Source of the DNA: Escherichia phage HEMP5
Sequence record: OR424388.1
Length of the DNA stretch: 64,000 nt
Direction: 5' to 3' (one strand)
Part shown: positions 658-48,462 of the stretch, in pieces
How the letters are laid out: every line of letters begins with the position of its first letter
Numbering within the stretch: position 1 is the first letter of the stretch
Made by a program: the position numbers and the translations under genes
Notes under the pieces: generated by a model
Seen by the model: only the letters and a program-made list of their open reading frames with translations
What the model was told of the DNA's origin: nothing
Database searches by the model: none

Positions 658-1175
658 TAATAACCTCGGTCTTGACGTGCGAAATTTTCAGCATTTTTCA
701 GGTAATAAAGTTTAAAGATTTCTTCTGCTGTAAGACCAAGACCTTGGAACATGTTCAGAACGAAATGGAGAATATCAATCATTTCAAACTTAATTTCCAG
801 TTGGTCTTGTGGAGACAAATCAGTAATCAGAGTTTCACGACGTTCACCATGCTGCGACTTCCAAGGTTTCCATACAGCAGATGCGTCTTTTTCACCATTA
901 CTCATACCACCAAGAGAAGTTAGAAGTTCACGGAATTCATCGTCAATATAATCTTTCTGATTACGCAACCAATCAACAACTTCACCGGCAGTAGCCAAAT
1001 CATCAGGATGACGATTATATTCAGGTTTATCTTTAGCTAAACGAATCTGCAGAGATTTCTGCATGTCAAGCATTACCTGCAACGGGTCTTTTTCATCACC
1101 GAGAATATCCCAGTATTCATTTTGAGCTTTATCAGCGCCTTCAATCAGTTGTGAACATTCATTAAAGTATGCCAT
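657..1175 (-). CDS. 56: dCTPase/dCTP pyrophosphatase gp56 (MazG-like)
   Basis: 172 aa from internal ATG (MAYFNECSQLIEGADKAQNEYWDILGDEKDPLQV...); the six-frame ORF is extended upstream through the promoter region. Confidence 0.9.
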   Translation of the reverse strand: MAYFNECSQLIEGADKAQNEYWDILGDEKDPLQVMLDMQKSLQIRLAKDKPEYNRHPDDLATAGEVVDWLRNQKDYIDDEFRELLTSLGGMSNGEKDASAVWKPWKSQHGERRETLITDLSPQDQLEIKFEMIDILHFVLNMFQGLGLTAEEIFKLYYLKNAENFARQDRGY

Positions 1176-1209
1176 TATTTTTCCTTTCAATTCATGGGTT
1201 AGTAGATTA

Positions 1210-1234
1210 ATTATACAATAAATATATAAAGCAA
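1210..1234 (-). promoter_or_regulatory. MotA-dependent middle promoter for gene 56 (MotA box TGCTTTA, 12-nt spacer, -10 TATAAT)
   Basis: Minus strand reads ..TTGCTTTATATATTTATTGTATAAT.. about 35 nt upstream of the gene 56 ATG. Confidence 0.5.
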
Positions 1235-1246
1235 TAAGGAGGACAT

Positions 1247-1447
1247 ATGGTACAAAAATTAATGGCACTTGTTAATGCCATCAAAGGTAATAAAAAGCGT
1301 ATAGCTTTTACTATTTCTGCTATGGTAGGAATTTTACTCTGGAACTTTATTTTATCACCTGTTGCAATTGCACATGGTATTAATATTCCAGTAGTTACTC
1401 TTGATACATTCGTAGATTTAGCATTCGCTTTAGTTGGGTTAATTTAA
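1247..1447 (+). CDS. possible small membrane protein on the opposite strand (66 aa)
   Basis: Plus-strand ORF with strong AAGGAGG RBS 4 nt before ATG; two hydrophobic segments; lies in the 56-61 intergenic region, convergent with primase; no clear promoter. Confidence 0.3.
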   Translation: MVQKLMALVNAIKGNKKRIAFTISAMVGILLWNFILSPVAIAHGINIPVVTLDTFVDLAFALVGLI

Positions 1448-24823: not shown

Positions 24824-24937
24824 TTAATTGATTAACCAAGCATTGATAAGCACTAAACTATATTGCGAATAAAATTCTGGACCAAAATGAAAAATCATAT
24901 CATTTATAGTATCCATAATGTAATTCAATTTAATCAT
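24824..24937 (-). CDS. possible small ORF (37 aa)
   Basis: ATG overlapping the nrdG stop; the six-frame ORF extends into nrdG out of frame. Confidence 0.2.
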   Translation of the reverse strand: MIKLNYIMDTINDMIFHFGPEFYSQYSLVLINAWLIN

Positions 24938-25400
24938 GTGTCCACACCCCATCGGTATTTGACCAAAGTCGCTGATTATCTGATCCTCGCCACAGCTTTT
25001 TGGTCGGAAGATTTTTCTCATACTTCCCATCAATAATAACATCAACATATTTAAGCATTTCTAGTTGTTTAATATCTTCAAACTTATATCCTGTCCACAA
25101 CCAAATGCTTTTATTGGGATAAAGATTTTTAATAGTTTGAACCACAGAGTGAATCACGTCTCTGTTATCAGGATAGAGAGGGTCACCTCCGGTTATAGTC
25201 AATCCTTCTATATAATCATTATTCAAACATTCAATTAATTGTTCTAGTGTTTCACCAGTGAATGGAACACCATTTCTAGCATTCCATGTTGATTTATTAT
25301 AACACCCTTCACATTTATGCAAACAACCTGTAACGAAAAGAACGGTCCTGCAGCCAGGACCATTAACAAAATCGCAAGGATAAAATCTATCATAATTCAT
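24930..25400 (-). CDS. nrdG: anaerobic ribonucleotide reductase activase NrdG (radical SAM)
   Basis: 156 aa; CxxxCxxC cluster motif (CLHKCEGC); ATGA overlap with nrdD. Confidence 0.95.
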   Translation of the reverse strand: MNYDRFYPCDFVNGPGCRTVLFVTGCLHKCEGCYNKSTWNARNGVPFTGETLEQLIECLNNDYIEGLTITGGDPLYPDNRDVIHSVVQTIKNLYPNKSIWLWTGYKFEDIKQLEMLKYVDVIIDGKYEKNLPTKKLWRGSDNQRLWSNTDGVWTHD

Positions 25401-27214
25401 TGGTGCTTAACCCTATGCATGATTTCTTTATTTTTGCCGAGATTAAATCCGCGTTCGTTCGGATTTCCCAAATAACCACATGTTCTTCTTATTGTGTTCA
25501 TCTTTTTAGGATCAGTTTCTCCACAAATAGAACAAACAAATCCGTTTTCAGTAGGAGTCATTTCATGGGTACTTCCACATGTAAAACATTTATCTACTGG
25601 CATATTAACACCAAAATAATCTAAATGTTGTGCAGCATAATCCCAGACAGCCTCAAGACCTTTTAGGTTATTTTTCATATCAGGAAGTTCAACATAAGAA
25701 ATGTGACCACCTGTCGCAATGAAATGATATGGGGCTTCGCGAGAAATCTTTTCAAACGGAGTAATATTTTCTTCTACTGAAACATGGAAACTGTTAGTGT
25801 ACCATCCTTTATCGGTAACATCTTTTACACTTCCATATTTTTCTGTATCAAGTTTACAGAAGCGATAACAAAGGTTTTCAGCAGGAGTCGAATACAAACT
25901 AAAAGCAAACCCAGTTCTTTCAGCCCACTGTTTAAGACGAGCATTCATTTTAGTTAAAATTTCTTGTCCAATATCACGACCGACAAGAATATTCAATTCA
26001 TGAATACCAATGTATCCTAAAGACACTGAACTTCTACCGTTTTTAAATAACTCAATTATGTCGTCATCAGGTTTAAGACGAACCCCGAATGCACCTTCTT
26101 GATAAAGAATAGGAGCAACAGTAGCTTTAACTCCTTTTAAGGAACTAATTCTACACATCAAAGCTTCAAAACATAAATCCATTCGCTCATTGAACAATTC
26201 GATAAATTTCTGTTCATTGAACTGTGTTCCAATATAAGAATCCAACGCAATACGAGGAAGATTCAGTGTTACAACACCAAGATTATTACGTCCATCAAGA
26301 ATTTCATTACCGGTTGAATCTTTCCACGCACTCAAGAAACTGCGGCAACCCATTGGAGAAACAGGAATAGATGAGCCGGTGATAGCTTTATTGTTCTTAG
26401 CTGAAATAATATCAGGATACATTCTTTTGCTTGCACACTCTAGAGCAAGCTGCTTAATATCATAGTTCGGATCGTCTTTATAAAGATTAACACCTTCTTC
26501 AACGAACATAACAAGCTTAGGGAAAATAGGAGTTATCCCATCACGACCGAGGCCTTTAATACGATTTTTCAGAATTGCTTTCTGAATCATTCGTTCAGTC
26601 CAGTCAGTTCCCGTACCAAATGTAATTGTTACAAAAGGAGTCTGTCCGTTTGAACTAAAGAGAGTATTTACTTCATATTCATAAGCTTGGAATGCATCGT
26701 ATACATCTTTTTCTGTTTTAGATTGAGCATAATTTAACGCATCAGCGATTTGCCATTTTTCTGCATCCTCAATATGTTTTGCATAGGTGCGTTTAACATA
26801 AGGAGAAAGTACTTTATCTACATTCGCAAAAGTCGTTCCGCCGTATTGGTGAGAAGCAACTTGCGCAGTAATTTGTGCCATAATTGCAGTAGCAACTCCA
26901 ATTGATTTAGGAGTTTCAATCTGTGCATTACCTAGCTTAAATCCGTTTTCAAGCATTCCTTTTAAATCTACTAAACAACAATTAGTAAATGGAAGAGCAG
27001 GGGAATAATCAATATCATGGAAATGAATAATTCCGCTTTCATGCGCTTTCATAATAAAAGACGGGACCATATTTTTGGCAATGTGTTTAGACACAATACC
27101 AGCCATAAGGTCCCGTTGAGTTGGAAAAACACGAGAATCTTTATTAGCATTCTCGTTTAAAAGGTCTTTATTAGTTTTATGAATCAATCCTTCAATTTCT
27201 TTTTCAATTGTCAT
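25397..27214 (-). CDS. nrdD: anaerobic ribonucleotide reductase NrdD (glycyl radical enzyme)
   Basis: 605 aa continuous ORF; C-terminal zinc ribbon and glycyl radical motif RRTCGYLG; no intron interrupts it. Confidence 0.97.
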   Translation of the reverse strand: MTIEKEIEGLIHKTNKDLLNENANKDSRVFPTQRDLMAGIVSKHIAKNMVPSFIMKAHESGIIHFHDIDYSPALPFTNCCLVDLKGMLENGFKLGNAQIETPKSIGVATAIMAQITAQVASHQYGGTTFANVDKVLSPYVKRTYAKHIEDAEKWQIADALNYAQSKTEKDVYDAFQAYEYEVNTLFSSNGQTPFVTITFGTGTDWTERMIQKAILKNRIKGLGRDGITPIFPKLVMFVEEGVNLYKDDPNYDIKQLALECASKRMYPDIISAKNNKAITGSSIPVSPMGCRSFLSAWKDSTGNEILDGRNNLGVVTLNLPRIALDSYIGTQFNEQKFIELFNERMDLCFEALMCRISSLKGVKATVAPILYQEGAFGVRLKPDDDIIELFKNGRSSVSLGYIGIHELNILVGRDIGQEILTKMNARLKQWAERTGFAFSLYSTPAENLCYRFCKLDTEKYGSVKDVTDKGWYTNSFHVSVEENITPFEKISREAPYHFIATGGHISYVELPDMKNNLKGLEAVWDYAAQHLDYFGVNMPVDKCFTCGSTHEMTPTENGFVCSICGETDPKKMNTIRRTCGYLGNPNERGFNLGKNKEIMHRVKHQ

Positions 27215-44181: not shown

Positions 44182-44463
44182 TTATTCTTTAAATCTAATC
44201 AATTTATTCATAGACTTTGAAACTTCTGCACGAACCTCATGTAGGTTTTTAAGCTGTTCAAGACGCTGCTCATAGTAAGCAATTTCATCTTCTTCGAGAC
44301 AGTCCTGTGAATCTTCTTTAAGATAACTCGCATAATCCTGGAAAGCTTTACGAACTACTTCCTGGAAGTCATCAAGACTTTGAATTTTCTTAGGAGCAAC
44401 AGATACACGACGAGGGGCAGCAGTATAATACTCATAACCAAACCCTGCGCTTAATTGAGCCAT
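44182..44463 (-). CDS. hypothetical protein
   Basis: 93 aa from ATG overlapping the upstream stop (TAATG); the six-frame ORF starts further upstream. Confidence 0.6.
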
Positions 44464-44729
44464 TAATATTTTTCCTCTGGTTGGAACACAGCACGACAAG
44501 CCCACATACTGGCTTCTTTGAGTTTCGTTTTAGCAATAGTTAACTGATCGAGGCTTTCAGCATAATTCTTCGCGAATTCACAGTCTTCACAATTATCTAG
44601 TGCTTCCCAGAATTCATCATATAAAGCGTCAAAGATAAATCCTAAACGAACTTCAGCATCTTTGATAGCATTTACTTTACCGATTTTTTCGTCGGTATGT
44701 GGCTTATAACCTTTAACATCTTCAATCAT
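44463..44729 (-). CDS. hypothetical protein
   Basis: 88 aa from ATG with GAGGAA RBS (the six-frame ORF starts at an upstream TTG). Confidence 0.6.
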
Positions 44730-44943
44730 ATTTGACTTCCTCACCAGTACATAAATCGTATTCAACTAAACGAATAGGTTCATGAATGCCATATCCCTGA
44801 ACAGAAATTTCTGTCGTAGGATAAATTCCATTAATATCACCCATGTTCCACGCTTCATTAAATTGCTGTTCGCCTGAATTACTAAACCACTCGGCGAAAG
44901 CATTTAGCACATCTTCAGAACCTTCAATAATTATCTTTGCCAT
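44722..44943 (-). CDS. hypothetical acidic protein
   Basis: 73 aa; TAATG overlap with the next gene. Confidence 0.6.
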   Translation of the reverse strand: MAKIIIEGSEDVLNAFAEWFSNSGEQQFNEAWNMGDINGIYPTTEISVQGYGIHEPIRLVEYDLCTGEEVKYD

Positions 44944-45305
44944 TACAGACTCTCAGTAAAGGTACGAGCGATAACGTCGCGCTGCTGTTCCGGAGTCAGA
45001 GAGTTAAAGCGAACTGCATAACCGGATACACGGATGGTCAGCTGCGGATATTTTTCCGGATGCTTAACTGCATCTTCCAGAGTTTCGCGACGCAGAACGT
45101 TAACGTTCAGGTGTTGACCACCTTCAATTTTAACCGTAGGCTGTGGTTCAATTTCAATTTCACGGGCATGCAAACCATAGAAAATTTCTGGGTCTACAAA
45201 AGAGTCCTCTTTAAAAGTTTTAGAGACAATAATTCGTGCTTGAATACCATCTTCAAAATAAATAGTACCTTTATGCGTGCCTTCAAGAATTTGATATGCT
45301 TTCAT
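44943..45305 (-). CDS. autonomous glycyl radical cofactor (GrcA/YfiD-like, T4 Y06I-type)
   Basis: 120 aa from ATG with GAGAGG RBS; C-terminal about 60 aa matches the E. coli GrcA/PflB glycyl radical domain ([39 protein letters not shown]). Confidence 0.88.
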
Positions 45306-45313
45306 ATAACCTC

Positions 45314-45694
45314 TCAATTAGAAAATAAATTTATCCAAGATTGTTCTTTAATTAAAAATGGCTCAGAATCATATGCCATTAAACTTTGGGTGATTAGTCC
45401 TTTAAAAGGTCCATCAATAAATTCCATGGTAAAATATGGAATTTTATTCATTAATCTTGCATTAGGAGCAGTACACAAAACTCTGCATCCTTTGAATACA
45501 CCTTTTTGTAATTTGTATTGCTTAGGATAAAATTCGCTCAAGACGTTGTTATTTGCCAAAATTTCAAAATGATTCACCAATTTATTTTTAATAGTTTTTG
45601 GCGAAAAATAAAGATATTCGAAAAGTTGCGTATCTGTCATCATTGCATCCCAATTACGAAAAACTGTGGACGAGTAATACCACCAATGCAACAT
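45314..45694 (-). CDS. hypothetical protein
   Basis: 126 aa; ATG start. Confidence 0.65.
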
Positions 45695-46209
45695 TTACTA
45701 TTGCAGCAGTAATGTACAGTGTCAATATGGACACTATAAATTTTATCCATATCGGGAGCTTTAACAGGCTCATCAATTATATACAAAATTCGCGAAAGCA
45801 ATAAACCCCTGAACTTGCTTCCTTTATTGCCAATAAAACTGCGCACAGAATCAGTAAATAAGCGGAATCGAATATCATCATTAGAATAACGCGAAAATTC
45901 TTTTTTAATGTGGCCCGCAGAAATTTTAGCGTAAGCTGAAGTATTAGAAAGAACAATAACTGTTCCGCCATCATACAGCCAATTAGCAGCGAAGTTAGTC
46001 ACAGCAGTTGATTTACCGGATTGACGTCCACCATCTAGTCGAAGTGTGCAATACTGTTTGAGTAAGTCTTCAAATGGTGGGATATAATCGTTTTTACAAA
46101 TTTCTTCTACTCTAGCATCAGAATGGTGTGTAAAAGCATTCATCAGGGATAGATAAGGACCAGTTAAAAATGTTTTCATTTTGTTATCTCTAAATTTGGG
46201 CCATTCCAT
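45640..46209 (-). CDS. P-loop NTPase (Walker A GGRQSGKST, Walker B ILYIIDE)
   Basis: 189 aa (or 179 from the second ATG); no recognisable RBS. Confidence 0.65.
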   Translation of the reverse strand: MEWPKFRDNKMKTFLTGPYLSLMNAFTHHSDARVEEICKNDYIPPFEDLLKQYCTLRLDGGRQSGKSTAVTNFAANWLYDGGTVIVLSNTSAYAKISAGHIKKEFSRYSNDDIRFRLFTDSVRSFIGNKGSKFRGLLLSRILYIIDEPVKAPDMDKIYSVHIDTVHYCCNSKCCIGGITRPQFFVIGMQ

Positions 46210-46336
46210 GGCGCATGAATTGTCCGTTTCTGTATTTACCCATTACCGCACTTGGGCTCGACCTTATTACAGGTTGGCGGGAATCCCTCACAGAATCATG
46301 AGGTCCAGCTTGTTCCCATGTTATTTGAATGTAAAT

Positions 46337-46356: not shown

Positions 46357-46935
46357 TTAATTACCACGGGCTGCATTAGCAACGGCATAAGCGTACTGAA
46401 CATTAGCGTCCTTAAACGTACCTTTAGAGGTATCTATTTCTGCCTTAAAGCCGCCTTTAGCCATAACATCGGCAAATTCTTTACGGAAAGCCATTGCATC
46501 AAGACCTTTCCATGATGATTTGTGCTTAGCGAATTCAAGACCAGCGTAGTTGACAGCCTTAGCTAATTTGTTATCAATAACCCATTTACCAGCTTTAGGC
46601 ACAAACACCGGGCCTTTCTGTTTAGAGAACAGTTTTAAATTCCAGCGACGAAGATCACTGTCGGCTTTAACAAAAGCTGCGTCTAAGTTACTAGCAACAA
46701 CATCCTGAATATGGCCAAATTTAAGCCCATCAACTTCAATATTTAGATCGGTACGCCAGCGAAGTCCTTCCCAAGCGAAGGCTTTAAAATCAGAAGCTTT
46801 TGTAGCTAAGTATCGTTCAATAGGGGCTGTTTTAGGGTCAAAGCCGTTTCCACCACGATAAGTCCACTCGTCCTTATTAATGCCTTGAGCTTTTCCTGCA
46901 AAGGCCTCGGCGATAAATTCTTTGTATGTTTTCAT
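46357..46935 (-). CDS. ipIII: internal protein III (capsid-targeted, CTS MKTYKEFIAE)
   Basis: 192 aa; N-terminal CTS; size matches T4 IPIII. Confidence 0.85.
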   Translation of the reverse strand: MKTYKEFIAEAFAGKAQGINKDEWTYRGGNGFDPKTAPIERYLATKASDFKAFAWEGLRWRTDLNIEVDGLKFGHIQDVVASNLDAAFVKADSDLRRWNLKLFSKQKGPVFVPKAGKWVIDNKLAKAVNYAGLEFAKHKSSWKGLDAMAFRKEFADVMAKGGFKAEIDTSKGTFKDANVQYAYAVANAARGN

Positions 46936-47060: not shown

Positions 47061-47162
47061 CTACTTTAGGACTGCACCAAATACGCGTGGTAATTCACGA
47101 TACTCAGCCATAAGATGTTGGTCGGTCAGTTCAGAAACAAGTGTTAAATTGATACGAGTCAT
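47061..47162 (-). pseudogene. denV: denV (endonuclease V, pyrimidine dimer glycosylase) remnant: first 30 codons then premature stop
   Basis: [31 protein letters not shown] matches the recalled T4 DenV N-terminus, then LK-stop; the remaining roughly 100 codons are absent. Confidence 0.6.

Positions 47163-47221: not shown

Positions 47222-48462
<1,241 letters not shown>

Follow-up and report, generated by a model that had tools for sequence, protein, structure and literature searches.

The gene at 44943..45305 of the window (the whole stretch of 64,000 nucleotides analyzed here) is the ortholog of T4 vs.6, which encodes Y06I, and both the gene and its biochemical role were already known. Our comparisons indicate that T4-type vs.6 very probably provides a glycyl-radical spare part for the pyruvate formate-lyase (PFL) of the host and that it is a mosaic gene, the 3' half of which has been overwritten by host grcA at least twice, presumably through recombination or conversion. 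The features referred to below are as follows.

44943..45305, minus strand: coding sequence of vs.6 (Y06I), an autonomous glycyl-radical cofactor of the GrcA type (open reading frame and sequence; 120 codons plus TAA)
45310..45313, minus strand: putative Shine-Dalgarno sequence GAGG, 6 nt upstream of the ATG and adjoining the vs.7 stop codon (direct sequence read)
45128..45305, minus strand: AT-rich 5' half of the phage lineage, codons 1-59 and the start of codon 60 (no DNA alignment to grcA, GC3 0.20)
44953..45127, minus strand: host-identical core encoding the glycyl-radical domain, 175 consecutive nt equal to E. coli grcA (alignment, GC rise, sole megablast match)
45021..45023, minus strand: Gly95 codon, predicted to specify the radical site of the RVSGYAV loop (motif position and alignment to GrcA, equivalent to GrcA Gly102)
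44943..44952, minus strand: phage-specific 3' tail, GAG AGT CTG TAA compared with GAA AGC CTG TAA in the host (alignment and sequence)
25397..27214, minus strand: nrdD, phage anaerobic ribonucleotide reductase, context only (Pfam NRDD, E 1.3e-171)
24930..25400, minus strand: nrdG, activase, context only (Fer4_12/Radical_SAM)

Identity of the gene and its neighborhood

The coding sequence runs from ATG 45305 to the TAA at 44943-44945 and yields a product of 120 amino acids (14 kDa). The mechanical list of open reading frames puts the start at a TTG (45317); ATG 45305 is the annotated start in all related phages and is preceded by GAGG at a distance of 6 nt. In the sequence TAATG, the end of vs.6 and the start of vs.5, which follows it, overlap. 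When the surroundings of vs.6 were scanned for promoters and terminators, the candidate sites were no commoner than in shuffled sequence.

Searching the T4 proteins by tblastn, we found that Vs.8, Vs.7, Vs.5, Vs.4, Vs.3, and RegB flank vs.6 in the T4 order. The gene thus occupies the position of the T4 vs.6 group, between vs.7 and vs.5/vs.4 and upstream of regB in the tk-e early region. It shares 354 of its 363 nt with T4 vs.6 (nine differences, no gaps), and only one residue of the product differs (R73 in the window, H in T4). A coding sequence labeled 'autonomous glycyl radical cofactor' in phage vB_EcoM-CHD94UKE2 (MZ234031) matches the gene at 100%, and the window DNA is from a Tequatrovirus, that is, a T4-type phage. 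T4 vs.6 itself has the same neighbors (vs.7 upstream; vs.5, vs.4, vs.3, and regB downstream) and the same host-identical 3' half, but its core has two further changes (CGC to CAT) and its tail is slightly different. The T4 counterpart named by the first-pass annotation was therefore the correct one.

Several neighboring genes deviate from their T4 equivalents. The open reading frame after vs.6 (44722..44943, minus strand) encodes 73 amino acids, whereas T4 vs.5 is annotated with 58 and maps in two frames that change over behind residue 17; an indel affects either the T4 frame as annotated or the gene in the window. The vs.4 ortholog (44463..44765, minus strand), the second gene downstream of vs.6, carries the Pfam Acb2/Tad1 hairpin domain PF24729 (E 5.9e-19), the family of the phage sponges that bind cyclic-nucleotide immune signals. 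The vs.8 ortholog extends across two frames at 45643..46291 (minus strand), with T4 residues 1-32 at 46196..46291 and residues 31-219 at 45643..46212; a frameshift, an error of sequencing, or another start site could account for this split. At 47064..47162 (minus strand), T4 endonuclease V (DenV, 138 aa) is reduced to a stub of residues 1-33, the remainder being absent. The gene order in the window is e, a 98-aa open reading frame (47222..47518), the denV stub, ipIII (46360..46935), and vs.8, compared with e, ipIII, ipII, denV, and vs.8 in T4. The window phage appears to have lost the UV-repair glycosylase DenV through rearrangement.

At the protein level, the first-pass annotation had assigned a GrcA/YfiD-type product to exactly this interval, and our searches bear it out. 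Pfam Gly_radical (PF01228) covers residues 61-101 of Vs.6 (E 2.8e-18), and BLASTP against E. coli GrcA gave E 9e-52. The C-terminal part, which had been described as nearly identical to GrcA over about 60 residues, is in fact fully identical, residues 61-120 matching GrcA 68-127 at 60 of 60 positions. The N-terminus differs, as had also been noted: I60 stands in place of V67, and residues 22-59 are about one third identical. The motif RVSGYAVRF occupies residues 92-100, and the predicted radical glycine is Gly95, which corresponds to Gly734 of PflB. Among PDB structures, E. coli GrcA (6OWR) ranks first with E 8.6e-42, and next comes the C-terminal end of PFL, where the similarity is limited to the last ~63 residues (Vs.6 58-120 against 1H16 697-759). 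Full-length PFL is a ten-stranded barrel of ~750 amino acids or more with a catalytic Cys-Cys pair. With its 120 residues, and with a match to the C-terminal end of PFL only, Vs.6 is not a full-length pyruvate formate-lyase or other glycyl radical enzyme.

The product is a small stand-alone protein with PF01228 and a PFL-type radical loop, as in the GrcA/YfiD group (TIGR04365 / IPR011140). Its score against NCBIfam TIGR04365, a model that aligns to residues 20-120, was 153.3 bits and lies under the curated equivalog cut-off of 170 (E. coli GrcA, 234) because the N-terminal half is divergent. Vs.6 resembles E. coli GrcA (YfiD, 6OWR, TIGR04365) in its stand-alone architecture, in residues 61-120, and in 175 nt of DNA, and the corresponding activity has been published for the T4 ortholog. 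It differs in the N-terminal half, which is ~34% identical and 7 residues shorter, and in its location in a phage gene cluster, compared with the chromosomal ung-grcA-eamB locus of E. coli. A different architecture was seen in Morganella phage vB_Mm5 (locus L094, 39..692), where the glycyl-radical module is C-terminal in a protein of 217 amino acids with an extra N-terminal ~97 aa (MYGYQVKTGKHTGTIF...) before the vs.6-like unit.

Function and the relation to nrdD and nrdG

According to PMC8683613, which cites Wagner et al. (2001), E. coli YfiD and T4 Y06I are the only two validated 'spare part' proteins. The same source states, again with reference to Wagner et al. (2001), that the radical is placed on these proteins by the PFL-activating enzyme and that they then complement oxygen-cleaved PFL, so that the rescue of PFL by Y06I, to which the first-pass annotation had pointed, is on record. 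By analogy with this published biochemistry of T4 Y06I and E. coli YfiD, host PflA would install the radical on Gly95 of the window protein. Radicalized Vs.6 would then dock on host PFL from which oxygen has removed the C-terminal radical domain, and activity would be restored. T4 shuts off host gene expression, and for this reason a copy of its own may keep PFL working for the phage under micro-oxic conditions. The benefit of vs.6 would be that it sustains PFL, and with it acetyl-CoA/ATP and formate production, in the micro-oxic gut. The N-terminal region of YfiD is disordered according to published biochemistry; it aids radical installation and is dispensable for catalysis, in keeping with the low degree to which the 5' half is conserved in the phages.

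An alternative suggested in PMC1524935 is that Vs.6 serves as spare radical domain for the phage NrdD and not for host PFL. A role in nucleotide metabolism was proposed in that paper, Pfam Gly_radical is common to Vs.6 and NrdD, and NrdD/NrdG of the phage are encoded in the same early region. The description of vs.6 as encoded together with nrdD/nrdG was, however, not borne out, since these genes are not adjacent to it but ~17.7 kb away. Moreover, the glycine loop of the window NrdD reads RTCGYLG, whereas that of Vs.6 reads RVSGYAV and is of the PFL type, and this difference argues against Vs.6 as a spare part for NrdD. E. coli PFL-activating enzyme (PFL-AE) discriminates between such loops, taking the RVSGYAV loop and not that of class III ribonucleotide reductases (PMC13450708). 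The radical domain is also DNA-identical to that of host GrcA, and the published rescue described in PMC8683613 is that of PFL. On these grounds, a service of Vs.6 to NrdD is very unlikely, and host PFL is retained as its predicted partner. Formate is the reductant for formate-dependent class III reductases such as E. coli NrdD, and an indirect link between vs.6 and NrdD through formate supply is plausible. Formate produced by PFL is consumed by formate-dependent class III reductases (PMC13450708), and the connection of vs.6 with nrdD/nrdG could be functional at most, via this formate, if the phage NrdD is formate-dependent.

Mosaic structure and origin of the 3' half

At the DNA level, gene nt 179-353 (44953..45127) are identical to E. 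coli grcA at all 175 positions, synonymous sites included. Over nt 179-363 the count is 183/185, and the two differences are both synonymous and fall in the last 10 nt. Upstream of this segment, nt 1-178 gave no DNA-level alignment with grcA. Base composition follows the same division, with a GC of ~0.5 in the patch and ~0.3 in its flanks, and with a GC3 that rises from 0.20 (5' half) to 0.44 (3' half), the latter being the value of E. coli grcA. Every one of the 5426 complete E. coli genomes contains a match to the 3' half, at 97.8-98.9% identity. When the whole 64-kb window was compared by megablast with these 5,426 genomes, 44939-45127 was the sole match. The host-like patch is thus genuine, has no equal elsewhere in the window, and far exceeds what chance would give.

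The first-pass annotation had proposed nucleotide alignment with grcA and pflB as a check, and the outcome (183/185 for grcA, 145/186 for pflB) supports near-identity of host origin. For the 186-nt block, the counts of 145/186 with E. coli pflB and 136/186 with tdcE rule out both genes as donor. Two records in our comparison carry grcA or tdcE on replicons labeled as plasmids, a full-length host-type grcA at 1001..1381 of locus L026 (Klebsiella sp. WOUb02 'plasmid unnamed4', 275 kb) and tdcE on E. coli 'plasmid 2' (L125, 786 kb); both look like chromids or mislabeled chromosome pieces.

How much of the gene came from the host is a separate question. The first-pass annotation had suggested recent capture of a host gene, which would mean that the phage took a complete grcA and that the N-terminus diverged afterwards. 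The 60 identical C-terminal residues and the fact that the entire protein aligns to GrcA would agree with this, and the host origin of the 3' half indeed stands. The capture of the whole gene does not, since DNA identity breaks off at gene nt 179 with nothing alignable upstream, and the 5' half has phage composition (GC3 0.20). The latter is 71-90% identical at the nucleotide level to Mosigvirus and Jiaodavirus genes in the same slot, and vs.6 is conserved in all T4-like genomes compared in PMC1524935. Furthermore, near-random divergence of the 5' half is incompatible with zero change in 175 adjacent nt. Capture of a complete grcA is for these reasons highly improbable.

We instead consider an old phage gene with a younger 3' half. 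Compared with the 5' halves of Jiaodavirus alone, the vs.6 5' half is 71-75% identical. Profile-profile alignment (hhalign) of the N-terminal halves of phage proteins and GrcA alone gave E 6e-5 with a probability of 65% and 34% identity over 38 columns, which would fit a distant homolog of this GrcA region. The simplest reading is that vs.6 is an old, diverged phage homolog of grcA, the 3' half of which was overwritten later. Its listing in PMC1524935 among the few open reading frames conserved in all T4-like genomes compared fits an old gene.

Host matching in other phages and its meaning

The last 186 nt of sixteen phage genes were compared with grcA of 81 host loci and with K. pneumoniae alleles from metagenome contigs. 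Genes of Tequatrovirus and Mosigvirus matched E. coli grcA at 175-183 of the 186 positions and K. pneumoniae grcA at 154-162. The reverse was found for the Jiaodavirus genes, which come from Klebsiella phages and matched K. pneumoniae at 164-174/186 and E. coli at 156-161. The species assignment of the K. pneumoniae allele, which was taken from metagenome contigs, is indirect (GRCA_KLEP7 protein identity, ung synteny, and GC): the allele encodes exactly GRCA_KLEP7, adjoins ung, and lies on contigs with a GC of 0.56-0.57. Perfect runs with this allele extend over 104 nt in phage KP17, 140 nt in an IMG/VR contig (L151), and 158 nt in a metagenome phage contig (L103), and 106 records of the phage collection are 95-99% identical to it. 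Between the E. coli and the K. pneumoniae block there are 17 synonymous codon differences. The Jiaodavirus genes lie upstream of regB in the slot that the window gene also fills, and the 5' halves of both are homologous, so that they and the window gene are orthologs with 3' halves from different hosts. These alignments indicate that the 3' half was replaced by host grcA at least twice and independently, in Escherichia phages (Tequatrovirus, Mosigvirus) and in Klebsiella phages (Jiaodavirus). Within Jiaodavirus, 5' halves are 97-98% and 3' cores 92-95% identical (p 0.009-0.05), and the greater divergence of the cores is what different donors or repeated events would give.

For the Escherichia phages, fixed differences were counted among 11 sequences, six Tequatro-type and five Mosig-type genes. 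Here, the two types were fixed for different bases at 12 positions of nt 1-177, at no position of nt 180-353, and at one position of the tail (Fisher p 4e-4). With synonymous changes alone, the counts were 6/52 and 0/56 codons (p 0.011). Pairwise synonymous tests of the 5' against the 3' half in single Tequatrovirus and Mosigvirus genes were not significant (p 0.06-0.45). Between the two genera, the flanks are 66-74% and the core 96-99% identical. This pattern indicates that the overwriting in E. coli phages came after the Tequatrovirus/Mosigvirus split. The phage alleles are arranged like a star with the E. coli core sequence at its center; each carries 0-8 changes in the core, most of them private. 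The extra differences of Mosigvirus MM02 are mostly not E. coli polymorphisms, as the best match among the 5426 genomes reached 95.7%, and they thus reflect drift in the phage lineage. Independent conversions and spread of one converted allele between phages fit equally within E. coli phages and cannot be told apart.

Several phage groups lack a close host match, and this rules out host tracking as a universal rule. The homologs of Pseudotevenvirus, Krischvirus, T5-like phages, and the Morganella phage are 73-84% identical to the host alleles compared, with identical runs of at most 29 nt. Pseudotevenvirus phages of Cronobacter, E. coli, and Enterobacter carry genes that are 99% identical to each other and close to no host allele. 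When Salmonella, Enterobacter sichuanensis, and Serratia alleles were searched against 50,697 phage records, no phage reached 95% or more. Tequatroviruses isolated on Yersinia, Salmonella, or Citrobacter have kept the E. coli-type patch, which implies that conversion is not fast relative to host switching. The T5-like (Tequintavirus, e.g., Bf23), Krischvirus, and Pseudotevenvirus proteins resemble Vs.6 in size class and in the RVSGYAVRF radical domain and also come from virulent enterobacterial phages; with their 3' halves at 73-84% to host grcA, these genes differ from vs.6 and represent the gene without recent host overwriting.

The same homologs bear on the possibility of a single ancient acquisition, in which the match to the host would stem from strong purifying selection and from codon preferences common to both. 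Across all hosts and phages, the amino-acid sequence of the radical domain is extremely conserved, and the T5-like and Krischvirus homologs retain the same amino acids, as this explanation would require. However, the DNA identity and short runs of these old homologs are what amino-acid constraint alone yields, and phages match their own host (E. coli or K. pneumoniae) at the synonymous sites that separate both hosts. That two phage genera have no fixed difference in the core but 12 in the 5' half also speaks against it, and we find an ancient acquisition scarcely credible.

Identity alone has no direction, and host grcA could formally have obtained its 3' half from a phage. The two halves of host grcA, however, diverge in parallel across host species (5'/3' identities of E. 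coli with K. pneumoniae 85%/89%, Salmonella 84%/84%, and Citrobacter 89%/92%). In composition, the patch resembles the host and contrasts with the phage DNA on either side, and all 5426 of 5426 E. coli genomes carry it with the ung-grcA-eamB context conserved. Reverse transfer is barely conceivable with these data. The parallel divergence of the halves and the conserved context argue that the donor is the host, and for the 3' half of the window gene the sequence comparison identifies E. coli grcA. Chimeric assembly of host reads into the phage genome, which a perfect host match in a hydroxymethylcytosine phage genome otherwise without host homology might bring to mind, is virtually excluded by the same mosaic with the same boundaries in the T4 reference, in ~500 independently sequenced phage genomes (95-99% identity), and in IMG/VR and metagenome contigs, as well as by the intact reading frame and the phage-specific 3' tail that overlaps the start of the next gene.

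A third host clade may be involved in an uncultivated T4-like phage contig (L146, IMGVR_UViG_3300008607_000007). It shows one mismatch in 74 nt to Haemophilus parainfluenzae grcA and 22/99 in the adjoining segment (p 2e-5, post hoc), and in its sister contigs the 74-nt segment has 7-12 mismatches. A short host conversion tract may thus be present in L146.

In the Escherichia- and Klebsiella-phage groups, the block opens with a codon that separates phages (ATT) from hosts (GTN); identity sets in directly behind it and breaks off 10-25 nt short of the stop codon. The last 10-25 nt of all phage alleles examined deviate from the host sequence. We infer that host grcA DNA overwrites the phage copy during infection, either by homologous recombination or by gene conversion. 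A conversion tract would need homology on both sides and would therefore be confined to the shared stretch; this confinement would account for a 5' boundary that is fixed and a 3' tail that has stayed phage-specific.

Cyanophage psbA and hli genes swap segments with host copies by intragenic recombination between host and phage. The likeness to vs.6 is that of a host-derived metabolic gene of a T4-like virulent phage that receives patches of host sequence by recombination. Gene, host, and pathway are different, and the vs.6 tract lies in one half of a very short gene and is perfect over 140-175 nt. In the searchable literature, which includes few subscription-journal papers, we found no prior description of the nucleotide-level host identity of vs.6 or of its host-tracking pattern, an absence that is weak evidence.

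The vs.6 gene and its role are textbook T4 knowledge, and the window adds no new system. A virulent phage with hydroxymethylcytosine in its DNA that destroys the DNA of its host nevertheless keeps 175 nt of perfect host sequence, and phages of other hosts carry the version of their own host; this evolutionary pattern may merit a brief follow-up. The chances seem to us evenly balanced that vs.6 is a host-tracking gene, in which the half encoding the radical domain acts as a standing patch of homology that is re-copied repeatedly from host grcA during infection, so that virulent T4-like phages of Escherichia, Klebsiella, and perhaps Haemophilus carry their own host's version. This version may be selected for its fit to host PflA and PflB, which would be the advantage of matching the host. 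The gene offers a natural and easily scored reporter of recombination between T4-like phages and the host chromosome, both for its frequency and for its machinery, and a case in which to examine whether auxiliary metabolic genes have to remain matched to their host partners.
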